Of a stretch of 64,000 nucleotides of DNA, positions 5,487-58,632 are shown in pieces (the stretch's first letter is position 1; every line of letters starts with the position of its first letter). The position numbers and the translations under genes were made by a program. The stretch covers positions 50,035 to 114,034 of IMG/VR virus record IMGVR_UViG_3300043313_001352, one strand, 5' to 3'. This DNA comes from a virus. The notes below the pieces were generated by a model, which saw nothing but the letters and a program-made list of their open reading frames with translations, was not told the DNA's origin and did not search any database.

Positions 5487-5838
5487 GGCAAGTCGGGGCA
5501 AGGCTTGGCTTGGCATGGCAGGGCAGGGCTCCCCCTAGGCCAGGCGCGGTCAGGCAGGGTTCGGCTCGGTCAGGCAGGGCAGGTTCGGCAGGGCGCGGTG
5601 TGCTGAGGTCCGGCGTGGCGAGGTGGGGCAAGGCACGGCAGGCTCGGAGCGGCTCGGCACGGCTAGGCATGGTGAGGCAGGCACACCCAGGCGGGGTCCG
5701 GCAGGGCACGTCAGCATTTGGCAGGGCATGGCAGGTGGGGCAAGGCTCGGTGTGGCCTGGCGGCGTACGGCATGGTTGGGTTCGGTTCGGCGTGGCAGGC
5801 ACGGTTAGGCATGGCAAGGTGAGGCGTGGCGAGGCGCG
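5487..5838 (+). ncRNA. orphan GGY-NN pentamer mini-array (putative guide RNA precursor, ~6 units)
   Basis: Reads ggcaa ggctt ggctt ggcat ggcag ggcag ggctc... with GGCA-GGY punctuation, the same grammar as the 21.6-25.6 kb array but on the opposite strand. Confidence 0.75.
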
Positions 5839-5885
5839 AGGGAACCCGCTCGCTCGTCGTCAGGGTGGTGTGTACTCTTCTCCCC

Positions 5886-6290
5886 ATGGGAGGGAACAAG
5901 CGCGGGTCGGTATTACGGTCACTGACCTGCCACTACTGCGGTGAGCGGGCCGAGGGCGAAGACCACATCGTGCCGCGAGCCGACCTGCCCAAGCCGCTCT
6001 CGAAGCTGCCCTACTGGTTCCGCGCCAACGACGTCGTTCCGGCCTGCCAGCCCTGCAACGGCGACAAGGCGTGGTTCAGGTCCGACTGCGTCTGCTCGCA
6101 CTGCACATGGGCTTGGTCCACCGCTCACGCGCTGTTCCTGCCCGAGGGCTACACCGAGCGCGGTTGGGTCGCCATCCAGCAGAACCCGACCATCGCGATG
6201 CCGCTCGCGGTCCCGCGCCCCGACCGGTCCGCCTACCCAGGCACCCGCGAAGGCCGGTCCGACCGCGAGTCCCAGGCCCTGTCGAACTAG
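5886..6290 (+). CDS. HNH endonuclease
   Basis: CHYCG...EDHIVP...NDVVPACQPCNGDK; leaderless start (TACTCT, 7 nt, ATG 5886). Confidence 0.85.
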   Translation: MGGNKRGSVLRSLTCHYCGERAEGEDHIVPRADLPKPLSKLPYWFRANDVVPACQPCNGDKAWFRSDCVCSHCTWAWSTAHALFLPEGYTERGWVAIQQNPTIAMPLAVPRPDRSAYPGTREGRSDRESQALSN

Positions 6291-21554: not shown

Positions 21555-21610
21555 TGCGTCCCTCCCGTTTCAGGTTGGTGAATCGTACCTCACCACACCC
21601 GTCTCGTCAG

Positions 21611-24600
21611 TAGCCGCGCCGGGCCACGCCGAGCCGTGCCCAACCATGCCTTGCCAATCCGCGCCTGCCGCACCTTGCCGCACCCACCTATCCATGCCGG
21701 TCCCAGCCTCACCACGCCTGCCTGGCCGCGCCACGGCGCGCCTTGCCCGGCCATGCCTTGCCAACCCCGCCTGCCTTGCCCGGCCGCGCCTAGCCTTTCC
21801 ACACCGCGCCTGCCCCGCCATGCCGAACCTGGTCACGCCTCGCCCAGACGGGCCTGCCAAGCCCAGCCCAGCCAAACCTTGCCTTGCCGCACCTGGCTGT
21901 GCCACGCCTGCCTGGCCGCGCCACACCCAGTCGTGCCAGGTCCCGCCTAGCCATTCCCTGCCTGCCTCGCCGTGCCTGACCGCACCCCACCATGCCTAGC
22001 CCCACCGCGCCTGCCATGCCGTACCAGACCTTGCCGAGCCAACCGGGGCTGCCTTGCCAAGCCCACCGCACCTAGCCCTCCGCGCTGCGCCTGTCCATGC
22101 CTAGCCCTGCCTGCCTCGCCATGCCGTACCGGACCCTGCCGGACCGGACCACTTCGGAACACACCTAGCCATGCCCTGCCGAGCCTGCCAAGCCACGCCC
22201 CACCGGACCCGACCACGCCTAACGCCACCTGGCCCCGTCAGTCCGTACCTAGCCACGCCTGCCTTGCCGTGCCGTGCCGGGCCTAACCCCACCCGACCAT
22301 GCCTTGCCTGCCGCGCCGCGCCCACCCGGCCATGCCTAGCCCCAGGTCACCTCGCCCAGCCTGCCTCGCCCAACCCGGCCATGCCTAGCCCTGTACGCCG
22401 CGCCACGCCTGCCGGACCAAGCCGCGCCTGACCGAACCAAGCCCCGCCGAGCCCACCTCGCCTGCCGGACCTGGCCGTGCCTGGCCTAGCCGCGCCCATC
22501 CATGCCCCGCCTGCCAAGACCCGCCGTGCCGTGCCATCGGTACCGAGCCCTACCAAACCACGCCTGCCGCGCCGTGCCAGACCGCTGCCGTGCCGACCAC
22601 GCCTAACCTTGCCCCGCCTGCCGTGCCATGCCCAGTCGCACCCTGCCGCGATCGCCATGCCCAGCCGTGCCGTTCCTGCCATGCCGGACCTCGCCCTCCC
22701 GGCCATGTCGTGCCCTGCCCCGCCTGCCCTGCCGAGACTGGCCGAGCCGTGCCATGCCTTGCTCACCTGGCCGTGCCGAGCCCGGACCCGCCTGCCTTGC
22801 CATGCCGGGCCGAGCCGTGCCTACCTGACCTAGCCCTGCCTGCCCAGCCACAGCTTGCCGTGCCTTGCCATCCGCGCCTCGCCTGCCGCACCCCACCTAG
22901 CCTGACCGAGTCATGCCCCGCCTGCCTCGCCTTGCCAGGACATGCCTTGCCACACCGCGGTGCACCAACGCCTCGCCTGCCAAGCCTTGCCTTGCCGTGT
23001 GCTGCCAAGCCGGGCCTGGACATGCCCACACGTGCCCTGCCGACCCGAACCACACCGAGCCATGCCTGCCGCGCCACGCCTTGCCTTGCCATGTCAACCG
23101 GGCCTGGCCCTGCCGCCCGCGCCTTGCCACGCCTGCCCGACCACACCACGCCTTGACCTACCCACGATGCCCCGCCTGCCGGGCCTAGCCCTGCCTTGCC
23201 AGACGATCCTGGCCGCGCCTGCCCTGCCTTGAGCGCCTTGCCTCGACCCGCCGTGCCAGGACTGCCGGACCGTACCGTGCCCAGCCTCGCCACGCCGTAC
23301 CTAGCCGCACCTGCCGGACCGTGCCTTGCCCAGCCACTCCATCCGTACCTAGCCTGCCGAGCCGTGCCTTGTCACGCCACGTCCCGCCCGGACTCGCCCC
23401 ACCGAGCCATGCCTGCCCAGCCGAACCACTCCTAGCCTGGCCATACCCTGCGCTGCCTGCCGTACCGAGCCACGCCGTACCGCGGAAGCCACGCCGATGC
23501 CTTGCCCCGCCTGCCGAGCCGTTCCTGGCCATGTCCCGCCGCGCCGTGTGCTGCCCCGCCTAGCCCCGCCTGCCGCGCCATGCCTTGCCGACCTTGCCTC
23601 GCCCAACCGTGCCAGACCTGCCCCGCCGCACCTAGCTGCACCGCACCAAGACCCGCCTGCCGCGCCTGGCCGAACCTTGCCATCCTTGCCCTCCGCGCCG
23701 CACCGAGACACGCCTGCCCAGCCCCGTCGTGCCATGCCTGGCCGCGCCCCACCTGACCAAGCCTGCCGAGCCGGGCCGCACCATCCTCGCCATCCGGTGC
23801 CGTGCCCCGCCTTGCCTGCCGCGCCGCGCCCTGCCAAACCTAGCCAAGTCGTGCCCTGCCATGACGAGCCGTGCCGGACCTGCCGTACCTCGCCACGCCC
23901 AGCTCCGCCGAACCTCCCGAGCCCAGCCATGCCTGCCGAGCCGAGCCGCGCCCCGCTTCGCCCTGCCAGGCCCGACCTTGCCATGCCTGCCACACCCGGC
24001 CTTGCCACATACTGCCGCGCCCACCGATCCTGGCCGCGCCCAGCCATGCCTGCCCGGCCCCGCCGCACCTCGCCATGCGCTGCGATACCACGCCACGCCC
24101 TCCGCGCCTGCCTGGCTCAGCCACACCGTCCCGTGCCACGTATCCCAGACCACGCCATGCCTGCCTCACCTAGCCCTGCCAAGCCCGGCCAATCCTGGAC
24201 GTGCCGGACCGAGCCAAGCCTGCCGGACCACGACGTCCATGCCCTGCCGCTGCCATGTGATGCCCTCCGCACCGAGCCACGCCTGCCTGACCGCACCAGA
24301 CCCGGCCGCACCCTGCCTAGACCACCGCGCCATGCCTGCCGTGCCGAGCCAGCCCTTGCCTCGTGAAGCCCAGCCCCGCCTCGCCGTGCCCAGCCAATCC
24401 GCGCCTGCCCCACCGATCCAAGCCCTGCCTTGCCTAGGCAAACCACGCCTGCCTGGCCTAGCCGGACCAAGCCGAACCCCGCCTATCCCCGACCCGCCTG
24501 CCGGACCGCACCTTGCCGTCCGCGCCGCGCCCAACGATGCCCAGCCACGCCTGCCGAACCGTGCCACGCCGTACGCCCCAAGCCGGACCCAACCTGCCCC

Positions 24601-25590
24601 GCCTCGCCTAGCCCAGTCTCGCCATGCCCAGCCTGGCCGTGCCCCGTTCACCGCGCCTGCCGAGCCTCGCCCCACCGACCTAGCCAACCCAGACCTAGCC
24701 TGCCGCGCCTCGCCCAGACAAACCATCCTCGCCGGACCGCCCGCACCTCGCTGCGCCAAGCCTGCCGCGCCACGTCATGCCACAGCTCGCCGCCCGTACC
24801 AAGCCTCGCCTGCCCCACCTCACCTAGCCAGGACGCGCCGGACAGCACCACGCCTCGCCACACCTTGCCTGCCGGGCCGCACCGAACGATGCCGAAAGCC
24901 ACCAAGCCCAATCATCCGAGCCGCACCACGCCTGCCTTGCCCGGCCGGACCGGACCGCGCCGTACCCGCCCCTGACAAACCCTGCCTAGCCCTGCCAGCT
25001 CCCTGCCATGCCTGGCCTGCCAGACCACGCCCCTCCGAACCTGGCCACACCATGCCCTGCCTCGCCTGCCGTGCCCGACCCTGCCAACGACGCCTAGCCC
25101 TGACACACCATGCCCTGCCTGCCACGCCGTGCCCAACCAAGCCCGGCCGGTCCCTGCGATGCCTTGCCATGCCAAGCCTGCCGTGACCCGCCTTGCCACG
25201 CCCCGCTTGCCCCGACGCACCTGGCCTTGCCTAGCCTGCCGAACCTAGCCGAGCCACACCATGCGTAGCCCCGCCGGACCAACCCGAGCCCCGCCCTGCC
25301 TGCCGCGCCTGGCCGTTCCCAGCCCACCAAGCCACACCGTCCCGGCCAAGCCTGGCCGTGCCAAGCCTGCCCAACCGCGCCTGGCCAGACCAAGCCAAGC
25401 CGTGCCATCCGCGCCTTGCCGACCACTCCGTGCCGCGCCCCGCCTGCCGGGCCTGGACTCGCCGTGCCATGCCTAGACCTGCCTGCCATGCCGCGACGAC
25501 CGGGCCAAGAATCCCATGCCCCGCCCCGCCTAGCCTGCCCCGCCGAGCGATGCCCTGCCGCGCCTAGCGTTGCCATCCCGTGCCTGCCGT
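21611..25590 (-). ncRNA. ~4-kb GGY-NN pentamer guide array (about 75-85 units of ~7-15 pentamers separated by GGCA-GGC); VIPR-like RNA array
   Basis: The + strand parses as NN-RCC pentamers (tagcc gcgcc gggcc acgcc gagcc gtgcc caacc atgcc ttgcc...) with a recurrent gcc-tgcc punctuation. The NN content is unique per unit, and the ORFs here are low-complexity artefacts. Confidence 0.85.
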
Positions 25591-25601
25591 GTCCGGACGT
25601 G

Positions 25602-25644
25602 GGACGAGGCAGGACGCACCCCCCAGTGGCGCCCTGCCTCGTCC
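25602..25644 (-). other. hairpin between the RAMP-like gene and the array (leader/processing or attenuation element)
   Basis: Perfect 12-bp inverted repeat ggacgaggcagg (25602-25613) / cctgcctcgtcc (25633-25644). Confidence 0.65.
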
Positions 25645-25659
25645 GGCTCTGAGCTGAGG

Positions 25660-32349: not shown

Positions 32350-35300
32350 CTAGGTGTTGAGGAAGGAGGTCGTCAGGTAGATGACGTCACCGTTGGCCAC
32401 GGTGCCGATCGTGACTCCACCGCCAGAAGAGATCTGACAGTTGACTACCGTGTTGGTGCCGTTGCGGGCGAGGAGGTTGACGGAGATTACTGGGCGTCCA
32501 GCAGTCAGCGGGATCGTCGCCATGGTCGTACCCGAGCCTGAGGCGCGCGAGAAGGTTCCTCGGAAGTAGACCTGCTCTCCGATGATCTTGTACGCAGGCA
32601 CGATGTTTCCAGCACCCCACCCCGCTCCGTACGCGAAGGAGTTCCAGCCACCACCTTGCGCGGAGTCGGCAGGCATGGACTCATCAGTGGCCCACTCGAT
32701 CCTTCCGGCGTCGATGTTGAAGTACGCGACCAGCACCCAGTTGTTCGGCACCGTGAAGTCGCTGAGGTAGTTCGTGTACCGGAAGTTTGCGGCCAGTGAG
32801 GTCGCAGCAGACCCGAAGGGGATCTCGTACCAGAGAACGTCCCATGAACTCATAGGGACGCCTGCCGAGGTGACCGTCTTTTGAGTGGCCCCGCCGAAGT
32901 TCGGGATCACCGTGCCAACAGGCGGCATGGTGATCTCGAAGTAGCCAGAAGGGGCAAGGTTGACGCTTCTACCGATACTCATCGGCATGAACCGCGCAGA
33001 CCACGAGATGTTGTAGTTGATGTCAACGACCTTGACACCGCCACCAGAGAGTTGTGACTGGGCACGGATGGAGTAGTACAGCTGCTCAAACGCCTTGCCA
33101 GTGAAGGAAGTCGCGCCAGCGCCTCCGACGTCCAGGGTCTCGAAGTGAGCGACACCGTCACCAGTGAGCTTGATCTTGGGGAACCCGCCAGTGCCTGGTG
33201 CGTTGGACTCCCATGAGGCTGGAGACGCAGCGATGAAGCTGGTGAGCAGCGGCGGCGCATCGGTGTCACCTACGGCACCGACGAAGTTCGGGGTGCTGAC
33301 GGTCGAGTACGTCGCTCCGACTCCAGACGGCAGGAACGCAGGCTGCTCAGGCTGCAGGATGAAGTCAGTCCGGATCGGCGTGATGTTGAGCGCCGCCCGA
33401 GTCAGGTAGAACCGGAACGAGTTCACATCGTTGACAGTCCGTGCCGTGCCCTTACCTGCAGCCGGGTCTGGCAGGTCCGGCACCGTGACGGTCAGCCGAG
33501 CCCGCTTCTTCATCGTGATCGAGGCGTACGCCGAGGCGTTCGACTCCTGGATGGCCCCTTGGGAGTCGTACCAGGTGAACGCTCCCCACCAGATCGAGGG
33601 ATCCGTGGCTGCCCAGGTGATCCCGGTGTAGTTGTAGAACTGCGGGCCGTCAGTGGCCGGAGCGGCCGTGAACCTCGTGAACGCACCAGTCAGCACATCT
33701 CCACACGCGCTGACACTCCGGGTCGCTGGGACCGCTGGGAACTCCAGGTCGACCAGACGCGCGGGCGAGGCAGCGTCAGTGAAGACGTAGTTGTTCACCG
33801 TCCCGTGGATCACCCAGATGTCCCGGTCGGTCGTCTCGAAGCCCATCCGCTGCGAGGAGCCGTAGGTGACACCGCACAGATCCTCGTCCTGGGCGAAGAA
33901 GGATGAGTTGATGGTCTTCGTGGCGCTCGGGGTGATCGTGGTGTCGGTGAAGGCCAAGGTGGCGAGTTCAATGGTGCCACCGGGCCATGGTGCGAACATG
34001 TTCCGCTTGGCTTGCGCGACCATGTGTGCGCGGGTAGCACCGGTCGCTGAGAAGCACCGTCCCAGCCGCCATTGCCAGAACCAGGAGAAGGTACCGTCCT
34101 GACGCTCGGCCTTCTTGATCGGGGCGAGAGTGCCCGAGGTGTTCATCGCTGAGTCGTCCCAGCTGGTGATCATGTACTTCTCGTCGCGGGCTCCAACGTA
34201 CCCAGCGGTGCGGAAAAATCCGTTGGTGACCTGTCGCTCAAGCCCACCAACAGCGATGACTGAGTTGCCATGGAAGGTGTAGTACGCAGCTGTCTCCCCG
34301 TTGCTGTTCGCGACGCGGGGGACCTGCCACCAGGTGGTCCCCTTCTTCATCGTCGCGTCGTCGAAGAATGTGTTCGCACAACGGAACGAGCCAGTGGACT
34401 CAGCACTGTCCAGGTGGAAGCCCCAGAACGGGTCACACCACTGTCCCCGTGCGAACGCGGACTGGGGGTAGTCCGTGCCCAGCGAGGGACCTGAGGTGGC
34501 ACCCACGGTCTGGGTCTGCAGGATGGTCTTGGAGCCCATCGCGAAGGTCGACTGGCCGCGGACATCCATCCCCTGGCCGACCGTGAGCCCGCGTGCCATG
34601 ATCTGCGCGTCGATCACCGAAGGCTTCTGTGGATCGTTGGGCAGGTCGACCCGGATCGAGACACCATCGGAGCCGTACTGCCTCAAACCCTCGCTGGACA
34701 GCTCCATCCGCTGCCCGGACTCAGCCGTCTTGATCTTCCCGATGATGGCGAGGTCAGCGTCCAGCTTCGCGCCCTTGATCTGAATCGCGTCCACCAGGTT
34801 GGTGTAGATGTAGCCGTCGGAGATGTCGGCCTCGGTGATCTGACGCAGGGTGGCCGAGCCAGCAGTACCGGGAGCAGCGGAGTTGAACCCGCCACCGATC
34901 TTGGCGTCCTTGGCGACGATCCGCACGTAGTAGGTGACCGAGCCGTCCTTGACCAGGAAGGTGCCGTCCGCCAGCTGCTCACGGATCGTGTAGGAGGTCG
35001 CCGTGGTCTCGATCTGCAACGTCGCTGCCGATGGCGTGAACGTGGCACCGGTGGTAGCGCAGTGCACCTCGTAGGTCACCGTGTCGTGGTTGAGGATCGC
35101 AGGCCACTTGATCCCCAGCGAGGAGACCGAGCCCGTCACCGTAGCTGCGGGTGAGGACGCAGGCGCAAGAGCATCGGGCGTGGCGGCGTTGTACGCCGAG
35201 TCAGCCGTGGCCGGGACGTTCGAGCTGGCCACAGTGAGCAACAGGTCGAAGATGCCAGAAGCAGCCGGGATGTCTGTCTCAGGCACCAGCGTGGTGTTCC

Positions 35301-38300
35301 AGCCTGTCTGCCAGGTGTCAGGTGGCAGGGTGTGTGAGATCTCGGCATCCACTGCTGTGATCTTCGGGTACTGCCAGTAGTTGCTGGCTGCCTGCGAGGT
35401 CAGGATGATGACCAACGTCCCGGTGGAGATGCGTCGAGCTACCCGAACCCCAATCGGCAAGTTGCCGGTGTTCACTCCCGTCGCGTTCGCGACTGAGGGC
35501 GGTGGACCTGCGTAGGAGTAACCGGATGTCTCCAGGTTGAAGGTCCCCTGGGTGGAGGCGTAGTTGAACCCCGAGAGCTTGATCTTGTACATCCGGTTGG
35601 TGAACGTGATCGGGGTGTCGATCACGATGTTGCCCGTCAGGTTCCCAGCCGCGTTCGCGTAGCTGGTCACGTCTCGGAACAGCTTCCCGTTGGCCCCGAT
35701 CAGCGAGATCTTGGGCAGCGCCTGAGAGGCAGCCGTGTAGGAGGAACTCTTGGAGACCCCGGTGTAGGTGAAGGTGAGGTTCGAGTAGGTGATCTTGTTG
35801 GTGGTGTACAGCTCGGTGTTGGTCAGGTAGCCAGGCTCGGTCGGGACCCAGGGAGCCACTGGAGTTGCCACCACCGGTACGGCAGGTGCTGCTGCTCCAA
35901 CAGGAGTCACCGTGGCGTAGTACGGAGTGACCGCCGTGATGCTGACACCCTGGGCACCAGCACCACCGGTCGAGCCCTGTGCTCCCGTGTAGGAGACAGA
36001 CCAGGCGAAGGTCTTGGTGAAGCTGACACCTCCGACCGTGATCGGAACCGTCAGAGTGCCGCTCTGGGTCACCAGAGCCGTCGTGACCGTGGCTGTGAAC
36101 TGCGCCGTCAGACCGGGGTTGTTCTGGTACGTGATCGTCATGCCGGTCGGCGCACCAGTGATCGTGCCGATCGTGGCGGACTGCTGGACGGCGCCCTTGT
36201 ACGCCAGCACCTGACTGGTTGTGAACCCGGCCACTGCAGCAGAGACGGTGCCGGGGAACACCTGAGCTTCGTTGGTCAGGACGACCGTGACTGCGTCCGC
36301 GCCTACGAAGCCAGAAGAGCCGTCGGAGATCTTGGAGATCGTCATGGTGTCGGTGACACCCGACGCGCCCGTTGCCTTGATGGCCAGAGTCTTCGCAGTC
36401 ATGATCGCGCCGGTGACGGTCACGACATTGCCCGCCACCGAAGCGTAGATCGGAGCAGCACCAAAGGTGCCGCCGTCTGCACTGAACGTCCACGTCGAAA
36501 TCGTGGTGCCGGTGGGAGTTCCGGTGATCACTGCCGTTGCAGGAGTTGTCGTAGCAGGTGCGACTGTGAAGTTGTCCAGCCTGCCAGCGTTGACGCCGAA
36601 GTTGTAGAGACCGTGTCGGGTGCCTGTGTAGGTGGCATCGGTGGCGGTCACTACCGTCACGTCGTTGATCTTGCCTTGCAGTGTTGAGCCAGACGCGGTG
36701 ATGGAGACCTTGTCGCCGAGCACGGCCAATGCCGTGGACTGGCCAATGGTCGTGTACGTCTCGGCACCGTACGCCCCTGCTGACCGATAGATCTGCAAGG
36801 ACCCGTTGTTGTTGATGACCAGCACGTAGCCGTTCAGGTTGGTCAAGTTGTGCCGGAACGCTATCCCTCCAGAGAGTAGGCCGGTGATGACAAAGGAGAC
36901 GGTGACGTCCGCGGTGCCACACTCCACGTCCGCGTAGGACTGACCACCCGTAGCGCCAGCCGTCGCGATGTACGCCTTGCCGCCGCTGACACCCCACACC
37001 GAACTGTTGTCGTTGCGCCACGCCTGACCCGTCTCAGTGGTACCGAGCGAGGTGGTTGAGTCTCCACGGTTGAACGAGTCGAGGATCGTGGGAGCAGGAG
37101 CAGACAGTGCCTGTGTGGTGGCGGTCAGGTCAACGATCGTGGCCGCCGCGCCAGTCGCTCCACCCGCACCTGTGAAACTCAGCGCCCACGTGAAGACCTG
37201 GTTGAACGTCATTCCGCCCACGGTCACTGGGATGGTGAACGTTCCAGTCGCTGTTGCCAGAGCAGTCGTCACCGTGAAGGTGATCAGAGGTGCTGTAGTC
37301 CCGTTGTTGGTCACCGCTGCTGTGATGCCGGTAGCGCCACCAGTGATCGTTCCGACCGTGGCTACCTGAGCCACCGTGCCCTTGTACGCGATGACCGTCG
37401 TGGTCGCTGTCGTAGCCAGCGCGTTGGTGAGACCAGCAGGGAAGCTCTGTGACTCGTTGGACAGCAACACGGTATAGGCGTCTGCTCCTGCGGGACCTGA
37501 TGGTCCCGTGCCTCCGGTGGCGCCAGTTGCACCGGTGAGCACCTTCGCCACCGTGAGCGAGTCCGCGACACCCGCGTTGTTGCCTGCCCGCACCGCGATC
37601 GTGCTGGCCGTCATCGTCGCCCCGGTGATGGTCACCACGTTCCCGGCGATCGACACGCCAGGTGGTGCTGTCCCGGACCAGGCACCGCTGTTGACGCTGT
37701 AGTCCCACACCGTGATCGTGGTGTTGACCGGGGTGCCCGTGATGGTTGCCGTGGCCGGGGCGGTAGCACCGGTCCCACTTGCAGGAGAGACCAGAACCTG
37801 AGCCGTCGAGGTCAGCGTGATCGTGGCAGCGTTAGATCCAGGAAGACCCTGTGGACCTTGGGTCTGGGTCCACTCGTACAGGTTCGCATCGGTACTCTCG
37901 ACGGCGGTCGTCTGGTTGTACGCGAGGCCCATGTGAGTGCCCACAGCGCTGTCGGTGACGTTCTTGACAGCGTGGTAGACCTCCTTGATGAAGACCTTGA
38001 TTCCGACAGCCTTGTTGTACGACAGGAGAGCGAGACGGACAGCAGTGGGAGCGCCCGCTGGAACGGTTGCCACACCGCTGTAGTCCGCGTAACTCGTGGT
38101 GATTCCACTGGGCTGCAAGCTAGTGAAGCGAACGACTTCTGTAGTACCGGCAGCGTTCAGCAGGATCGCGTAGATCCCCGACCCATCCCCTATGACGGTG
38201 CTTCTCATCCTGATGCGGAGGTAGATCACGTCGCCCGGAACCACGTCAAGCGTCTGCATGGCCGTGGCGCCATTCGTTGCGAGAAGGCCAGAAGTGAGGG

Positions 38301-41300
38301 CGAGAGCACCTTCGGTTGCATCCCACGCGACCGTGTGAGCAGCGTTGTACCACTGCATCCCGTTAACGCTGCGCTGCCAGTCAGCGGGCAGCGTCGGGTC
38401 AACCGTGTCCAGCTTGGCGAAGTCACCGTTACGGATGATGTCGTTGCCGTACTTGATCCAGGTGTAGGTGGGCTGTCCGTTAGGACCAATGGGACCTTGC
38501 ACGCCCTGGTTTCCCTGGGGACCTTGGATCAGTGACCAGTCATAGTCGGTGTAGATGGACGACTCAGTGGCAGAGGACTTGTTGTAGGCCAAGCCCATGT
38601 AGATCTTGCCTGCAGGTAGGTCACTCATCCCCGTCGAAGGCGTGTCCGCGTACTTCAGCCACGTGTAGGTGGGCAGACCGTTCGCGCCGGTCGGACCTTG
38701 GATCCCTTGAGACCCGGTGGCACCGGTGAAGGCCAGCGACCAAGAGAAGATCTGGTTGAAGGTCAGCCCGCCTACGGTCACCGGGATGGTAAAGGTCCCC
38801 GTGGCCGTGCTCAGTGCTGTCGTCACGGTGAAGGTGATCAGTGGCGCGGTGGTGCCGTTGTTGGTCACCGCTGCGGTGATGCCGGTAGCGCCACCGGTGA
38901 TCGTCCCGACCGTAGCGGTTTGTGCCACCGTGCCCTTGTAGGCGATGACGGTGGAAGTGGCAGACCCCGCTAGAGCGTTGGTGAGCCCAGCAGCAAAGCC
39001 CTGAGACTCGTTGCTGAGGAGGACCGTGTAGGCGTCAGCACCTGCAGGTCCAGTGCTGCCAGTAGAGCCGGTAGCACCGTCGGAGACCTTCGCTACGGTC
39101 AGCGTGTCACTGTTGCCGGAAGCCCCGATCGCCTTCACCGCGATGGTCTTGGCCGTCATGGTCGAGCCAGTGATCGTGACCACGTTCGATGCAGCGGGCC
39201 TGGAGACACCAGGTGGAACGGTCCCGGAGAAGGCAGCTCCGTCCACGCTGTACTGCCAGCCTGCCGTGGAGTCCGGGATCGTGGTGTTCGTCGCTACAGC
39301 CGTCACTGTCGCAGTCGCGGGTGTGATCGTTCCGCCTACACCAACTGCCAGCACCTGCGTGCTCGCTGTCAGGTCGACAGTCGAGGCAGGAGCACCAGCC
39401 ACACCCTGGGAGCCTTGTGGACCCTGAGGGCCTTGGATGAGCGACCACTCATAGTCGGTAGGAACGGTCGTCTCGGTAGCAGTGGTCTTGTTGTAGGCAA
39501 TACCGATGTAGGTCTTGCCTGCGGGCAGGTCGGAGATGTCAGCGACGATCGGGGTAGCGCTGGTGGCGTACTTGATCCAGGTGTAGGTGGGCTGTCCGTT
39601 CGGACCAGTCGGACCTTGCAGACCGGTGTTGCCCTGTGGGCCAGTAGTCAGGTTCCACTCATAGTCGGTGTAGATGCTGGACTCGGTAGCAGTGGTCTTG
39701 TTGTAGGCGATACCCAGGTACGGCTTGCCAGCAGGCAGGTCGCTCATCCCGGTGGTAGGCGTGTCGGCGTACTTGACCCAGGTGTAGAGCTGCTGCCCGT
39801 TCGGCCCGATCGGACCTTGCACACCTTGAGACCCGGTCAGACCCAGCGACCAGGAGAAGGTCTTGGTGAAGGTGATCCCACCGACGGTGATCGGCACCGT
39901 CAACGAACCTGAGGTGGTCACCAGCGCGGTGGTCACCGTGACGGTGAAGCCAGCCGCCGTCGTGCCGTTGTTGGTCAGTGCCGTAGTCAGACCAGTGACC
40001 TGCCCGGTGATCGTGCCGATCGTGGCCGTCTGCTGAACAGTCCCCTTGTACGCCAGCACCTGGCTGGTGGTTGATCCAGCGACAGCTGCGGTGGTGGAGC
40101 CAGGGAACACCTGGGCTTCGTTGGTCAGCTGCACGGTGTAGGCATCAGCGCCCGCACTGCCGTCCATGGACTTGGCCACGGTCAAGGTGTCAGCGACCCC
40201 GTTGGCGTCGGACATGCGCACCGCGATCGTGCGCGCGGTCACGGTGCCGCCGGTGACGGTGACCACGTTGCCGCTGCGCGAGACGCCCGTGGGGACCGAG
40301 GTCGAGAACACCCCACCGTCGACGCTGTAGTCCCACACCGTGATCGTGGTGTTGATCGGGGTGCCGGTCACCACGGCCGTCGTGGGCGTGGTGGCCCCTC
40401 CGGTCGCCGGGGAGGTCAGAACCTGGCTGGTCGAGGTCAGGCTGATGGTCGCAGCGGGAGTGCCAGGCACGCCGTTGGCACCGATCGGCCCGGCGAACGA
40501 CAACGACCAGCTGAACACCTGGTTGAACGTGATGCCGCCTACCGTGACCGGGACGGTGAAGGTCCCGTTGGCAGTGACCAGCGCGGTAGTGACCGTGAAC
40601 GTGATCAGGGGTGCCACAGTGCCGTTGCTGGTCACCGCGGCGGTGATGCCCGTGGCTCCGCCGGTGATCGTCCCGACGGTCGCGGTCTGCTGCACCGTCC
40701 CCTTGTAGGCGATCACCGTCGTCGTCGCCGTTGCGGCCTGAGCGTTCGTGGTACCAGCGGTGAAGGTCTGCGACTCGTTCGAGAGCACGACGGTGTACGC
40801 GTCGGCTCCTGCCGCACCGGTCGCACCGGTCGAGCCGTGCGCGGAGACCGAGTAGGCAGTCGACGTCGTGGTGTCGGAGTAGGTGGTGATCGTGCGCGTC
40901 CACAGGAACTGTCCAGGGATGGTCGCCTGCGGCGTCGATTGCCACGTCCCGACTGGTGCCGTCGTGCCGGTCGAGCCGACCTGGTAGGTGACCGCAGTGC
41001 CGGTGACACCGACACCTGGTGCCCCGGTGGAGCCCGAGGTGCCGTGTGCGGAGACTGAGTACGCCGTCGAGCTGGTGGTGTCGGAGAAGGTCGTGACCGT
41101 CCTGGTCCACAGGAACTGCCCAGGGGAGGTGGCCTGCGGACTGGACACCCAGGTGCCTGTCGGCGCAGTGGTGCCGGTTGAACCCACCTGGTAGGTGACG
41201 GTGGTGCCGGTGACGCCAACGCCCGGCGCTCCGGTACCGCCAGTGCTGCCGGTGGCGCCGTCGGAGACCTTGACCACGGTGAACGTGTCGGCCAGCCCAG

Positions 41301-44300
41301 CAGCATCGGCCATCTTGATCGTGATGGCCCTCGCCGTCATGGTCGTGCCGGTGATCGTCACGACGTTGCCGGTGCGACTCACACCCGCAGGAAGCGCGGG
41401 CAAGAAAGTGGCGCTACCGTCCACGCTGTAGGTCCAGGCCGTGATGGTGGTGTTCGTGGCGACACCTGTCACGGTGGTCGTTGCGGGAGTGGTGGCTCCC
41501 CCGGCTGCAGGGACCGCCAACACCTGCGAGGTAGCAGTCAGCGAGATGGTCGGAGCAGCGGCACCAGGCACACCCTGGGAGCCTTGTGGACCTTGCGGTC
41601 CTTGGATCAGCGACCAGGTGTAGTCGGTAGGAACCGTGGTCTCCACGGCAGTGGTCTTGTTGAACGCGAACCCGATGTAGGGCTTGCCTGCCGGGGTATC
41701 GACCAGCCCGCCGCCATTGATGTCATCGGCGTACTTCACCCAGGTATAGGTGGGCTGACCGTTAGCCCCAGCAGGCCCCTGGATGCCCATGTTCCCCTGA
41801 GGCCCCTGGATCAGGCTCCAGTCATAGTCCGTGTAGATGCTGGACTCGGTAGAGCTGGTCTTGTTGTATGCCACACCCATGTAGGTCTTACCGGCAGGCA
41901 GATCGCTCATCCCAGTAGTCGGCGTATCGGCGTACTTCAACCACGTGTAGAGGCTTGCTCCGTTAGCACCAGTCGGACCCTGGATGCCTTGTGATCCTGT
42001 TGGACCTGGTGGTCCTTGGATGAGCGACCACTCATAGTCCGTGGTGATCGTGCTCTCTGCAGCCGTGGTCTTGTTGTACGCGATGCCCATGTAGGTCATG
42101 CCGACCGGAGAGTCACTGATCTGTGGAGTGGTGGGCGCTCCGTTGGGCGCGTACTTGATCCAGGTGTAGGTCGGTTGCCCGTTGGGACCGATCGGCCCCT
42201 GGATCCCCGTGTTCCCCTGGGGTCCCTGAATCAACGACCATTCGTAGACGTTGTAGTTGACGCTGTCCTCGGTCTGGGTCGTCTTGTTGTAGGCGATGCC
42301 CATGTACTTCTTGCCCGTGGGGTCATCGTTCATCCCCGTGGTGGGGGTGTCCGCGTACTTGATCCAGGTGTAGGTCGGCAAGCCATTCGCACCGACAGGC
42401 CCCTGGATGCCCTGTGAACCCTGAGGGCCTTGCGGACCCTGGATGAGTGACCACTGGTAGTCGGTGGGGATCGTCGTCTCGGTGGGCGTGGTCTTGTTGA
42501 ACGCGAGACCGATGTAGGTCATCCCAGCCGGTACATCCACGATCTGGCCAGCGGTGGGGTTGCCGTTCGGTGCGTACTTGACCCACGTGTACGTGGTGAC
42601 ACCATCAGCCCCAGGAGTACCTGGGATGCCCTGGTTTCCTTGTGGACCCTGGATCAAGCTCCAGGTGTAGTCGGTGTACACCGTGGTCTCAATCGCTGAG
42701 GTCTGCCCAACCGCGATCCCCATCCAGGTCTTGCCCGTAGGAGAGTCAGACATGTCAGCAGGGATCGGAGTAGCGCTGGATGCGTACTTCAACCAGGTGT
42801 AGTAGGTGATCCCCGGAGAGCCTTGGATGCCCTGAGAGCCAGCGGGTCCTGGTGGGCCTTGGATCAAGGCCCACTCATAGTCGGTCGTGACCGTGGACTC
42901 TGTGGCCGTCGTCTTGTTGTACGCGATGCCGATGTAGCTCATCCCGACCGGCGAGTCGCTGATCTGGCCGGTGGTGGGTGCTCCGTTGGGCGCGTACTTG
43001 ATCCAGGTGTAGGTCGGTTGCCCGTTGGGGCCAGTGGGTCCTTGCACACCGGTGTTGCCCTGGGGGCCTTGAATCAACGACCAGCCATAGTCGGTGTAGA
43101 TGCTGGACTCGGTGGAGCTGGTCTTGTTGTACGCCAGACCCATGTAGGTCTTCCCGGCTGGGAGATCGCTCATCCCAGTCGTCGGTGTGTCGGCGTACTT
43201 CAGCCAGGTGTACATCGGCTGGCCGTTGGGACCGGTCGGTCCTTGGATTCCTTGTGACCCGACCGCGCCAGCGAGGCTCAGCGACCAGGCGAACGCCTTG
43301 GTGAACGACTTGCCGTCTGCCGTGATAGGCACCGTCAAGGTGCCGTTGACGGCCGTCAGCGCCGACGTGACATCAATCGTGAAGCCCGCCGTGGTGGTGC
43401 CGTTGTTGGTCAACGCGGTGGAGATACCTGCCACCTGGCCGGTGATCGCACCGATCGTGGCCGGGATCTGGGTGACGCCCTTGTAGGCGATCACCTGGCT
43501 GGTGGCGCTCGCGCTCACCGCAGCTGTGGCCGTTCCCGCGAAGCTCTGCGCCTCGTTGGTGAGCAGGATCGTGTACGCATCGGCGCCAGCCGGTCCGGTG
43601 CCACCTGCTGCGCCGTCGGAGATCTTCGCGATGGTCATGGTGTCTGCGTTGCCAGCAGCGTCAGCTGCCTTCACCGAGATCGTCTTGGCCGTCATCGTGG
43701 CACCAGTGATGGTCACGCTGTTGCCGGTGCGGCTCACTCCGGCAGGGACCGTTCCGGAGTAGGTGGCTCCGTCCACCCCGTAGGTCCAGTTGATGATCGT
43801 GGTGTTGATCGCTGCCCCGGTCACCGTGGTCGTGGCTGGGGTCGTCGTACTACCGCTCGCAGGCACGGCCAGCACCTGCGAAGTAGCCGTCAAGGTGATG
43901 ATGGCTGCGTCGGATCCAGGTGGGCCTTGGAACAAGCTCCACTCATAGTCGGTGGCGACGGCGCTCTCGACGTCGGTGCTCTTGTTGTAGGCGATACCGA
44001 TGTAGGTCTTGCCTGTCGGGGAGTCGCTCAGCCCAGCTCCGGTGGCGCTGTCGCCGTACTTGATCCAGGTGTAGGTGGGCTGACCGTCGGGACCCGCCGG
44101 GCCGGGTATGCCGGGCTCGCCGGGCTCTCCGGGCGTACCGGCGGGACCAGGCGTGCCACGGATCGGACCGATGTTCGACCACCCGGTGCCGGTCCACTTC
44201 ACACCATCGCCGACCGCAGCAGCGGTGCCGTCCATGGCCGGAGGGACCCAGCCAGGCACCGGCGTACCGACGATCCAGATCTGGCCCGGTAGGGGAGCGG

Positions 44301-44700
44301 TGGGTGCCGTCTGGGGTGTGGTGCCGATGATGCTGACGCTGGCGCCGCTGTTGCCCGTCAGACCGGACGGACCAACCGGTCCCGTGGGTCCGGTGGCTCC
44401 GCGCGGCCCGGTCGCACCGATCTGGCCTTGCGCACCCTGGGATCCTGTCGGCCCCAGCGGACCAGGGACGCCGACCGGGCCAGTCGGTCCGGTCGGACCC
44501 AGAGCACCCGGTGTGCCGACCGGCCCGGTAGGGCCAGGAACACCCTGTGGCCCCTCGGTGCCGGGGATGACCAGGTCGATCTCATTGGGATCGCTGGAGA
44601 CCAGGTTGACGCTGACCCGCGGCTCTCCGGAGATGATGTCCAGCTCGATCTCCCCCAGGACGCTGGACAGCGTCACATTGTCCGTATTGTCAACGGTCAT
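32350..44700 (-). CDS. giant (4116 aa) tail fibre/adhesin with collagen-like and tandem beta repeats
   Basis: Gly-X-Y segments alternate with >12 copies of TYTW(I/L)[22 protein letters not shown]...DY.WSLIQG and Ig-like DAYTVxLxNE repeats; CBM-like, FN3-like and C-terminal tip domains. Confidence 0.9.
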
Positions 44701-49265: not shown

Positions 49266-50188
49266 ATGGTCTCCTTGAGGTGAGCGGCCTGAGCTGCTGC
49301 CAGGTCGTGGTGCACGAGATCGCCGAGCCACTCCACGTCATCGGGAGTCAGATAGTAGGGGCTGGTGACACCCATCGCCCGGCCTTCGTCGGTGTCGCAG
49401 AGGTACACAGTGCCCGCGTGAGCGACGTACAGGGGTGTGGGGGTCCACCAGCCCGGCATCCGCTCGATCGCGCCCTGGTGGACGCCCCTGGCCACGCTGT
49501 AGACCTTCGCCGGGTTGGCCATGGTGGTGGAGTCGATCGGGATCACCGGCCAGTTCACCCGCTCCGGCTCCAGCACCTGCGGGGAGTAGTGCCGGTCGGT
49601 CAGCCACAGCATCGCTGGCTGGGGCGGGTACACCAGCCGCGGCAGCTCGATGGCGGAGGAGACGTCCACCGGCACCACCTCGCTGACGATGCTGATCCGC
49701 TTGGCGGCGATCGCCGGGCTGGCCCAGGGGTGCAGCGGCATCAGCACCGGCGGCCAGACTTCTTCGGCGAGCACGGTGAGGGCGGCGGTGATGTGGGTGC
49801 GCTGCTTCTTGGTGAGGTTGCGGGACTGCTTGACCCGCTTGCTCATCAGGTACGGCGAGTACAGCCGGTCCAGCTCGCGGATCGCGCTCTGTGCCGCGGC
49901 TCGGGTCTTGTTCAGGTCGGGATCGTCGACGAAGAGCAGCAGCGGCGTGTCGTCGAGCAGCGCCTGGCCGATCACCTCCAGTCCGACCAGGGCGTAGGTC
50001 GCGCCCGGAGACAGGGCGGAGGTCACACCACCGATGATGAGGTCGGCGTTGTCAGGCGCCTCGGGACCGCGGTAAACCGCGTGGTCCATCGTGGTCAGCG
50101 CCCGCTCCAGCGTGCGCGCGAACGTGACTAGCTCGCGCGCACGCTGGGACACCATCCGAGGACTCATCCCGGTGATGTGGATCCTCAC
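49166..50188 (-). CDS. hypothetical, possibly GT-B-fold glycosyltransferase-like protein
   Basis: Start GTG 50188 with RBS AGGAG; MRIHITG...LLLFVDDP...GWWTP pattern; weak assignment. Confidence 0.4.
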   Translation of the reverse strand: MRIHITGMSPRMVSQRARELVTFARTLERALTTMDHAVYRGPEAPDNADLIIGGVTSALSPGATYALVGLEVIGQALLDDTPLLLFVDDPDLNKTRAAAQSAIRELDRLYSPYLMSKRVKQSRNLTKKQRTHITAALTVLAEEVWPPVLMPLHPWASPAIAAKRISIVSEVVPVDVSSAIELPRLVYPPQPAMLWLTDRHYSPQVLEPERVNWPVIPIDSTTMANPAKVYSVARGVHQGAIERMPGWWTPTPLYVAHAGTVYLCDTDEGRAMGVTSPYYLTPDDVEWLGDLVHHDLAAAQAAHLKETMWNHDTLSSVLADSLGRVRSSKKRATKTAPSRT

Positions 50189-56661: not shown

Positions 56662-58632
56662 TCACAGTGGTGCTCCCGTCAGGAACTTTCGCATCAGGTC
56701 GGCGTCGTGCACGATCTCCTCCAACATGTCCCGCTTGCGGTCCAGCGAGACCAGCTGGGCCATCTCCACGGTGCCGGGTGTGACGTAGTCGATCTTGGTG
56801 ATCGACTCGTGGTCCTCCGAGCCGATCCGGTGTGCGCGGGCGATCGCCTGGTCCATCTCCACCGGGCTCCAGTTGCGCTGGATGAACACCTCGACACTCG
56901 CCTTGGTCAGGGTGATTCCGGTGCCACCGGCCTTGATCGTGGACAGCACGTACTGGAAGTCGCCGCGCTGGAAGTCGTCGATCGCCCGGTTGCGGGCCTC
57001 CTCGTCGATCGCGCCGGTGATCATCCCGTGCCGGATCGGACCGCCCTTGTTGGCCGGGTTCTTGTGCAGCCGCTCGGAGAGCATCTCGATCAGCTGCCGG
57101 GACTCGGCGAAGACCAGCACCGACTGACCCTCGAAGTCACCCAGGTCGCCCATGAGCGCGTCCAGCTTGGACGAGGGGTTCTGCAGGAACAGGTGCTCCT
57201 CGTCGCGGTACAGCGGCTCGCCGGTGTAGGCGTCGACCAGCTTCTCGCGGGCGGTCACCATCGGCATCCCGGTCTCCGGGTCGGTGCTGTGCTTGGCGCC
57301 CCAGTACTTCCACTTGCCGGTCTCTGGATCGACCGGCACCAGGTGGGTGGTGCTGGCCGTCATCTGGACCTTGACGATCCGCAGGTCGCCGTGGGAGGAG
57401 GCCAGCTGCATCAGCCTCGCCACCTGCACCATCGGATTCGCGGCCAGCAGCACCCCGGCGTCGAGCTTGGCGATCATCAGGTCGCGCATCTGCTCGTAGC
57501 TCTTCTTCTGGGTGGGGTTCATCTCGACGTCGCGCTGCTCGGGCACGATCGGCGGCAGGAACGGGAGCACCAGCTCCTTGGTCATCCGGCGCAGGTGCGG
57601 GTCGACGCCAGCGTGGAACTCCACCTCGTGGGTGGGCTTGATCCCGTTGACCTCCATCCCGCCCCAGATGTTGAAGGTGAAGTTGATCAGCCGCTCCACC
57701 CAGGCGCTCTTCGCGGGCCACTCCAGGGAGTCGATCCAGTGCAGCACCGGCCACAGCTCGGTGGGGTCGTTGGCGATCGGGGTGCCGGTCATCGCGAACC
57801 GGATCGGGGAGTCGCCGGACGCGGCCCACAGTGCGCGGGTCTGCATCGAGTGCGGGTCCTTGGCCCGGTGCGCCTCGTCGGCGACCACCGCGGCGAAGTC
57901 GATCTCATTCAGCTCGCGCTGGTGGACCTCGCACTGGGCCTGCTTGACGGTGCCGGAGCCGCCGCACTCCACGCACTTCTTCAGCGCGTGCGAGCCGAAG
58001 GCCAGCAGCCGGGAGTGGGTGCGCAGCGCCTCCCAGTTCAGGATCACGAACTTGGCCCCGGAGCGGATCTTCTTGCGGCGCTGCTCGGCCGAGCCGGAGA
58101 CCACCGCGATCTGCACCTCGGGGTCGCCCCACCAGATCCCCAGCTCCCGCTCCCAGGTCCGCTTCATCGTGTTGGGGCACACGACCAGCACCTGGCCGTC
58201 GAGCTGACCGGTGTCCTGGAGCTTGCGCAGCGCGAGGATCGCCTGGATGGTCTTGCCGGTGCCCATCTCGTCGGCCAGCAGCGCGCGCCGGACCAGCGCC
58301 AGGAACTCCACACCAGCCCGCTGGTAGGGGTAGAGCCGCTCGTCGCCCTCCAGCCCGGCCCCCATCGACTCACGCAGGTGCATCGCCGGGTCGATCACGT
58401 CGCGCTTGCGCGCCCAGGCCCACTTGGAGAGGTCGTCACCGACCTCCAGGTCGTCGCCGAAGACGTCGCGCATCGCCAGGCACGAGGTCCAGGCCAACGG
58501 CACCGACCACTTGCTGTCGTCTTTGGACCAGCGCGCTCCGGGCAGGGTGCGGACCAGATCCTTGGCCGTGTACGGGGATGCGATGGTGATTCGGTCACCC
58601 CGGCGGGGGTGGACGTCGGCCTCGATCCGCAT
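56662..58632 (-). CDS. SNF2-family DNA helicase
   Basis: LLADEMGTGKT, VVADEAH, MTGTP, QAIARAHRIG. Confidence 0.92.
   Translation of the reverse strand: MRIEADVHPRRGDRITIASPYTAKDLVRTLPGARWSKDDSKWSVPLAWTSCLAMRDVFGDDLEVGDDLSKWAWARKRDVIDPAMHLRESMGAGLEGDERLYPYQRAGVEFLALVRRALLADEMGTGKTIQAILALRKLQDTGQLDGQVLVVCPNTMKRTWERELGIWWGDPEVQIAVVSGSAEQRRKKIRSGAKFVILNWEALRTHSRLLAFGSHALKKCVECGGSGTVKQAQCEVHQRELNEIDFAAVVADEAHRAKDPHSMQTRALWAASGDSPIRFAMTGTPIANDPTELWPVLHWIDSLEWPAKSAWVERLINFTFNIWGGMEVNGIKPTHEVEFHAGVDPHLRRMTKELVLPFLPPIVPEQRDVEMNPTQKKSYEQMRDLMIAKLDAGVLLAANPMVQVARLMQLASSHGDLRIVKVQMTASTTHLVPVDPETGKWKYWGAKHSTDPETGMPMVTAREKLVDAYTGEPLYRDEEHLFLQNPSSKLDALMGDLGDFEGQSVLVFAESRQLIEMLSERLHKNPANKGGPIRHGMITGAIDEEARNRAIDDFQRGDFQYVLSTIKAGGTGITLTKASVEVFIQRNWSPVEMDQAIARAHRIGSEDHESITKIDYVTPGTVEMAQLVSLDRKRDMLEEIVHDADLMRKFLTGAPL

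Follow-up and report, generated by a model that had tools for sequence, protein, structure and literature searches.

Organization of the locus

The DNA analyzed here is a 64,000-nt stretch of the IMG/VR virus record IMGVR_UViG_3300043313_001352 (positions 50,035 to 114,034, hereafter the window), i.e., the right-hand 64 kb of one 114-kb virus contig, and it carries a VIPR system with an unusually large array of guide RNAs (vrRNAs). VIPR systems, described since 2026, are phage-carried silencers related to CRISPR that RNA guides direct to DNA. On the − strand the locus reads in the order vipr gene, putatively staggered vrRNA array and vap-type accessory gene. The stretch occurs in soil-metagenome DNA runs only, and no RNA run was listed for it.

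The vipr gene (P0001, 25660–26343, −; 227 aa) encodes a Cas7/Csm3-like RAMP protein that is predicted to be the guide-binding subunit. It belongs to phrog_4652 and to no Pfam family. Its AlphaFold2 model had a mean confidence score (pLDDT) of 90.6, and both fold searches were topped only by Cas7-family RAMPs (Csm3 9g9a_D, Z 11.4 over 151 residues at 3.7 Å; Cmr4 6s6b_I, Z 11.2), while a profile built from 45 members of the P0001 family, which share a conserved glycine-rich segment (GVGVGEWRPEK), matched PDB entry 36pp_D, ‘SUSP1 Vipr protein’, with an E-value of 1.4e−12. The vap-type gene (P0002, 21084–21554, −; 156 aa; phrog_15946) lies directly after the array, and its model (pLDDT 87.7) gave weak matches to winged-helix-like folds (Z 5–6).

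A strict 5-nt period runs between these two genes, from about 21,590 to 25,650 (lag-5 identity 0.52 vs. approximately 0.26 in the flanks). Since the lag-3 signal is absent across the whole tract, it is not protein-coding, and a coding repeat was dropped as its identity. The + strand is made of NNRCC words that are interrupted, roughly once in ten words, by the four-letter TGCC, and the tract contains GCCTGCC 66 times; the − strand, which is the strand of both flanking genes, reads GGY-NN with GGCA/GGC junctions. Of the 715 pentamers that parsing yielded, 580 have the form GGY-NN when read on the − strand; with a further 119 four-letter words, the pentamers form 74 units of at least seven words with a median of ten words per unit, 57 of the 74 being 9–16 words long.

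Based on the period and the parse, the array proper (21590–25588, −) consists of ~74 abutting GGY-NN units in a ‘staggered’ arrangement, without a structured tail between units. A leader (25589–25659, −) extends from the vipr stop codon to the first unit and contains a 12-bp inverted repeat (GGACGAGGCAGG / CCTGCCTCGTCC). No Rfam family matched the array, and megablast recovered no phage relatives of the region. The structured invariable 3′ tail that follows each repeat tract in type II VIPR is absent, the units abutting via the GGCA/GGC junction only, and this would fit the ‘staggered array’ variant and not type II. Self-targeting was searched across the 114-kb contig at ≥ 80% identity of the guide dinucleotides (NN), and a single 7-word unit (6/7) but no longer one was found.

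The discovery preprint defines the VIPR class by a Vipr RAMP, vap genes, and vrRNAs of 9–16 GGY/NN repeats, and distinguishes seven types (bioRxiv 10.64898/2026.04.26.720920). With a Vipr homologue, a GGY/NN vrRNA on the vipr strand, a vap gene, adherence to the skip rule described below, and no self-targeting, the locus is a VIPR system. The class, its code, and the silencing mechanism were already published in 2026, so that this is not a new kind of system; new with respect to print are the size of the array (74 guides vs. a median of five in 103 other loci) and the guides for host defence genes.

Conservation of the locus and turnover of its array

In total, 120 IMG/VR loci were collected through the protein motif GVGEWRPEK. 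A GG-periodic array was found on the same strand beside the vipr homologue in 103 of the 120, and a P0002 homologue directly downstream of vipr in 113 of 118. The typical array of the other loci was ~365 nt long with a median of five units (103 loci), the largest having 28 as compared to the 74 of the window. The related contig L004 encodes a Vipr protein that is 96% identical and carries a homologous array of 67 units, which is a mosaic of kept and replaced units. In the aligned blocks of related arrays, GG and the GGCA junction showed 0–3% substitutions and Y and NN 4–19%, and arrays additionally turned over through whole units being gained or lost, a pattern that fits an RNA composed of a scaffold plus a code.

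A Vipr homologue together with an array was also present in the Gordonia phages Pipp, ODay, and Trine, in mycobacteriophage Saal, and in Pseudomonas phage LESphi2. In Pipp (MN234179.1), gene 43 (L001 6611–6880), annotated as ‘hypothetical protein’, overlies a GGY-NN array that directly follows the Vipr homologue encoded by gene 42; here, a vrRNA array was probably mistaken for a gene. Saal and 26 further mycobacteriophage records (genus Cheoctovirus) encode a Vipr homologue (45% identical) that is annotated as hypothetical; the stretch upstream of gene 51 in Saal (L003 5551–5850) is a 300-nt GGC-NN array, and gene 52 is the vap homologue. These mycobacteriophages belong to cluster F. The array of LESphi2 (L005 2560–2930, upstream of P21_9) comprises three blocks of ~11 GGC-NN pentamers, and a short hairpin comes after each block; judged from the sequence, this is an architecture of tailed guides, unlike the staggered array of the window. 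Many close Vipr homologues in the protein match list were located on very short contigs (~1–2 kb). If the repeat array interrupts assembly, arrays would be under-represented in metagenome assemblies.

The guide code and its targets

According to the published rule, the guide pairs with a one-nucleotide skip in which the skipped base falls on the wobble position (bioRxiv 10.64898/2026.04.26.720920). The units were decoded as follows: each + strand word is NNRCC or NNCC, NN gives codon positions 1–2, the third position is free, and TGCC separates units. As 7 of the 16 dinucleotides are ambiguous, the choice of amino acid is partly free when decoding, and with this freedom all nine peptide strings quoted in a preliminary description of the window, made by a reader from the sequence alone, were reproduced at their coordinates. 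The nine include a putative GIY-YIG string (21670–21718) and a putative SF2 helicase string (22366–22409). That reader appears to have arrived at the published VIPR logic independently.

The decoded guides were tested by exact NN-x pattern scans of public collections (20–24 specified bases, 22 for the three guides with matches). By our own estimate, the chance expectation for one 22-base pattern is ~0.02–0.07 matches in 596 Gb. Three guides gave ten exact matches, and all ten were in frame, on the sense strand, and at the motif of the predicted family. Ten of ten in-frame sense matches in families predicted beforehand cannot be chance, and they place the skipped base at the wobble position of the codon, as the rule of the class demands. 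A reversed-order control had no match in IMG/VR; the cyclase pattern (see below), which served as a positive control, found a single site without mismatch in each of four genomes, where the reversed control found none. Taken over whole units, NN matches amounted to 11/11 for the cyclase, 11/12 for the M78 peptidase, and 12/14 for the ThiF/E1 guide, all of them above the 80% that the literature uses as the threshold for the VIPR class.

The first of the three guides, RPASILITTLA (24055–24108, −), reads a conserved motif of CD-NTases, the cyclases of cyclic oligonucleotide-based antiphage signaling systems (CBASS), as had been proposed from motif resemblance. Its pattern had six exact matches in 596 Gb of genome contigs, and all six were in frame in homologous CBASS cyclases (PADLOC PDLC00780, E-values from 1e−106 to 1e−112; Pfam SMODS and DncV-like). 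Four of them came from Solirubrobacterales, one from Rhodopirellula, and one from Sandaracinus, and the suggestion of a host among the Nocardioidaceae found no backing in this distribution. In one of the loci (L132), the cyclase stands beside a patatin CBASS effector (PDLC00757, E-value 2e−96) and an AbiJ-like gene, which places the target in CBASS by the combination of CD-NTase and adjacent effector; a formyltransferase gene (ACT domain) lies within 3 kb, and no phage gene was recognized in 8 kb. The matched clade is sporadic, being present in 1 of 121 sampled Solirubrobacterales genomes, and the guide sits on its most conserved stretch. Among the 120 closest cyclase cluster representatives (54–100% identical), the guide was compatible with 29 at 11 of 11 codons, with 62 at 10, and with 21 at 9, i.e., with 112 at ≥ 9 of 11 codons, counts that were made at the level of amino-acid classes and are an upper bound, since the codons of Arg, Ser, and Leu fall into two families each.

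The second guide, (T)RFTLAHE[CW]AH[IM] (23992–24050, −), reads the HExxH motif of M78 (ImmA/IrrE) peptidases. The ImmA/IrrE attribution, likewise made beforehand, was borne out by one exact match in IMG/VR, a gene on a viral contig (L133:8726-9463:-) that reads RFTLAHECAHI in frame (Peptidase_M78, E-value 9e−15; best PADLOC model capP, E-value 6e−15).

The third guide, SIVGLGGTGTYILD (22116–22185, −), reads the Rossmann motif of the ThiF/E1 family. Its 11-codon core GLGGTGTYILD had three exact matches in metagenome contigs (L134–L136), all in frame and at the Rossmann motif of DUF6791+ThiF proteins. The gene was thus rightly read as E1-like, but its supposed association with CBASS did not hold: these proteins have weak local similarity to Cap2 models (E-value about 1e−5) and belong to a multiubiquitin/DUF6527 operon without a cyclase, which differs from the E1–E2 fusion next to a CD-NTase that characterizes CBASS Cap2. 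In L135, Multi_ubiq and DUF6527 genes flank the E1 gene, and the operon adjoins a candidate defence pair (PDC-M71A/B).

Recurrence of the motif likenesses was then compared between arrays and shuffled controls. HExxH-type units were found in 8 arrays, where shuffles gave 1.03 and none of 300 reached 8; spread over several phage lineages, these guides for M78 peptidases recur in the arrays of L011 (e.g., VYRFTIAHEIGHLVIH), L024, L034, L040, L078, L081, the window, and L004. Strings of the type H-x-[HD]-x-D-H occurred in 2 arrays vs. 0.12 in shuffles, the two being the array of the window and that of its close relative L004. When all 570 units of all arrays were compared with 2.7 Mb of local sequence, matches stayed at the shuffled level except for the cyclase unit and a unit of the unrelated phage L119, which spells motif I of SNF2 helicases (LLADEVGTGKT). 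Sharing of decoded strings between unrelated arrays was weak (10 shared 6-mers vs. 2.3 in shuffles), a motif panel run over the arrays found no Walker A and no DEAD boxes, and the comparison of the window units with the six cyclase loci and four new target loci made only the three known guides stand out.

The SNF2 guide of L119 is one NN off LLADEMGTGKT in a helicase encoded in the window (56662–58632, −; 656 aa from ATG, in a 661-aa open frame), and phage helicases may thus be VIPR targets.

Interpretation and alternative explanations

We consider the following reading the most likely one, with a probability of about 0.7: the window carries the VIPR locus of an uncultured soil phage whose panel of 74 guides represses host defence genes and the regulators of rival elements. 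By analogy with the published class, Vipr protomers would polymerize along the GGY-NN guide such that GGY is sequestered and NN presented, the NNs would pair with double-stranded DNA with every third base skipped, and the bound complex would block transcription. Repression programmed in this manner, from either strand and through binding of double-stranded DNA, is published for VIPR (10.64898/2026.04.26.720920; in part 10.64898/2026.04.26.720927, which also treats its filament and triplex structures); the programmable silencer envisaged in the preliminary description is therefore an experimental result for the class, whereas for this phage we infer it from sequence. At least three guides read codon letters that do not vary in motifs for catalysis or nucleotide binding (in a CBASS cyclase, in the E1 that a multiubiquitin operon encodes for ubiquitin-like conjugation, and in an M78 peptidase of the ImmA/CapP-like kind), and the phage would express the panel early, repressing host defence genes and rival-element regulators. 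Guides aimed at motifs that cannot be changed without loss of the enzyme would make escape costly and would allow a single guide to cover many diverged homologues.

Several observations weigh against this reading. Targets were identified for 3 of the ~74 guides, and of nine guides that were searched, three had exact matches and six had none. The second supposed E1 unit (A[CW][DE][FL]I[FL]LAA[DE]T, 23662–23714, −), searched as A[CW]DFIFLAADT, had no exact match in IMG/VR, none at ≤ 3 mismatches in four genomes, and none in the E1 genes of L134–L136. Two adjacent guides, AAL[KN]Y[KN]VL[IM][DE]VG (23821–23880, −) and VST[HQ]P[DE]S[DE][HQ][IM] (23885–23933, −), are candidates for a metallo-β-lactamase/ComEC target, and they had no match in 401 Solirubrobacterales genomes (≤ 1 mismatch), in IMG/VR (exact), or in the four cyclase-bearing genomes G001–G004 (≤ 3 mismatches); for the latter guide, the pattern scanned in the 401 genomes and in IMG/VR was VSTHPDSDHI, and a target may exist outside these samples. 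The PD-(D/E)xK unit (KPVVIVELKT, 22516–22565) had no match in IMG/VR, nor had the 12-codon IVGLGGTGTYIL in metagenome contigs. Two guides that had not been flagged before were without a match in the four cyclase-bearing genomes; altogether, the five guides tried on these genomes besides that for the cyclase had no site there at ≤ 3 mismatches, so that no single genome was seen to be matched by several guides. All three verified targets are on the sense strand, as opposed to the binding of either strand in published systems, a difference that three cases cannot settle, and the M78 match, by lying on a viral contig, suits the published inter-phage role as well. Finally, NN divergence between other related arrays is near-neutral (17–19%), and many guides may accordingly be short-lived. 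As for the earlier view of a repertoire aimed at defence and mobile-element genes, every identified target is indeed of this kind, but three of its nine attributions were verified and four were searched without a match, and the word repertoire is an extrapolation given that ~70 guides have no known target.

The alternative that survives best, which we regard as unlikely, is that the array serves only warfare among mobile elements and that the matched genes are hit as cargo of rival prophages, satellites, or plasmids. Satellites, prophage lysis–lysogeny regulators, and other VIPR loci are the natural targets published so far, with viruses as those of host-borne types (10.64898/2026.04.26.720920; 10.64898/2026.10.15.759431). 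The M78 match, placed on an IMG/VR viral contig, agrees with this, ImmA-type peptidases being prophage switch regulators, and the target might just as well be a switch protease that a rival prophage encodes. Mobile elements frequently carry CBASS and ubiquitin-like operons, and the matched cyclase clade has the patchy distribution among Solirubrobacterales given above. Two of the matched loci speak for host defence instead: the L132 cyclase, accompanied by its patatin effector and AbiJ-like gene in surroundings free of recognized phage genes, and the E1 operon of L135, which adjoins another candidate defence system. The two readings overlap, because the silenced genes are anti-phage either way.

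Considerably less probable is that the guides act on RNA, as antisense to target mRNAs, blocking translation or directing cleavage without binding DNA. If the array is transcribed together with vipr, its RNA would be antisense to all three verified targets, every match being in the sense orientation, and Csm3 and Cmr4, the closest relatives of solved structure, have RNA as the target they bind. The class has, however, been shown to bind double-stranded DNA, to have targets on both strands, and to repress from either strand (10.64898/2026.04.26.720920; in part 10.64898/2026.04.26.720927), and three of three targets would fall on one strand by chance one time in four.

That the motif likenesses are mere chance from permissive decoding of random spacer dinucleotides is already close to refuted: although 7 of 16 dinucleotides are ambiguous, six of nine searched guides lack a match, most units did no better than shuffled ones against the local sequence, and unrelated arrays share little, the ten exact matches, each over 22 specified bases, all lay in the reading frame and sense orientation of genes of the predicted family, the reversed controls were empty, the HExxH enrichment was reached by no shuffle, and the rule has been shown experimentally for the class (10.64898/2026.04.26.720920).

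Relation to published systems

The closest described systems are the reference type II VIPR systems of Escherichia phage SUSP1 and a Pseudomonas fulva prophage (10.64898/2026.04.26.720920; in part 10.64898/2026.04.26.720927; PDB 36pp), which likewise have a small lone RAMP, a vap gene, guides of 9–16 GGY/NN pentamers, a wobble-aligned skip, carriage by phages, and no self-targeting. The locus of the window differs from them in that its guides have no structured 3′ tail, in the number of guides (74 abutting ones, and not one to a few), in a host range of apparently actinobacterial soil taxa, and in targets that include chromosomal anti-phage defence genes. In its architecture, it would resemble the ‘staggered’ vrRNA arrays which the legend of fig. 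S18 in 10.64898/2026.04.26.720920 describes as guides that overlap by one nucleotide without a spacer; here, the GGCA/GGC junction is a four-letter step by which the pentamer phase is shifted by one.

With regard to the choice of target, active-site codons of a satellite recombinase are the published target of a VIPR guide, SUSP1 vrRNA4 (10.64898/2026.10.15.759431), and the guides of the window are alike in addressing codons of the catalytic core, reading the invariant positions and skipping the wobble. Escape from such a footprint would break the enzyme because the invariant positions are those that are read. The vrRNA4 target is the recombinase of a rival satellite, whereas the guides here address a CBASS cyclase, an E1, and an M78 peptidase. 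In the text of the discovery and satellite-competition preprints, searches turned up neither CBASS nor anti-defence.

The filaments of Class 1 CRISPR systems (Csm3, Cmr4, Cas7, Csf2) share with Vipr the RAMP fold (Z 8–11), polymerization on a guide RNA, and periodic gaps in pairing. VIPR differs from them by a 5-nt and not 6-nt period with a sequence-specific GGY anchor, and the locus of the window has no Cas10, Cas5, Cas6, Cas1, or Cas2 and no repeat-spacer array. The known counter-defences of phages include the anti-CBASS proteins Acb1 and Acb2 and the RNA anti-CRISPRs (Racr, PMC10651486), the last being RNA-based as well; these act by degrading or sequestering the signal or by imitating CRISPR repeats, while programmable repression of the defence gene itself is what is proposed here.

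The repeats of Tweety gp54 were considered as the same thing and rejected, since their period is 12 bp. A TRAP-like ring-binding RNA, an R-loop/G-quadruplex origin element, and a Rho or protein sponge were dropped after the Vipr homology and the code had been verified.

Other features of the window

A second, small vrRNA array (5490–5840, +) has six units that are G-rich on the + strand, and no vipr gene beside it. It is located upstream of, and adjoins, an HNH gene at about 5886–6290 (+). One of its units decodes as T[DE][DE]H[IM]VP[SR]T[DE][FL]P, which is near GEDHIVPRADLP of the adjacent HNH gene (8/12 NN, or 10/12 at the level of amino-acid classes) and under the 80% threshold; no exact match for this HNH-like unit was found in IMG/VR. 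Elsewhere in the window, 32350–44700 (−) is taken up by one open frame (4,116 aa), with a G+C content of 0.60–0.68 (mostly 0.61–0.64) that is lower than in most of the contig.

Implications

Guides that exactly read motifs of chromosomal anti-phage genes suggest that VIPR is used against host immunity besides rival elements. As a wider proposal, which we put forward tentatively and hold to be somewhat less probable than its opposite, VIPR would also be an RNA-guided counter-defence in which many of the ~74 guides address invariable codon letters in catalytic motifs of immune genes, those for CBASS cyclases and for the E1s of ubiquitin-like conjugation among them, such that several systems would be disarmed per infection across diverged Solirubrobacterales hosts. 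If true, phages would have an anti-defence mechanism that can be programmed, in contrast to the known protein inhibitors and sponges, and VIPR would be the first strategy against CBASS that is programmable and guided by nucleic acid. The array of 74 guides, together with the 67 of its relative, offers a large natural record of the genes that a soil phage finds worth silencing.

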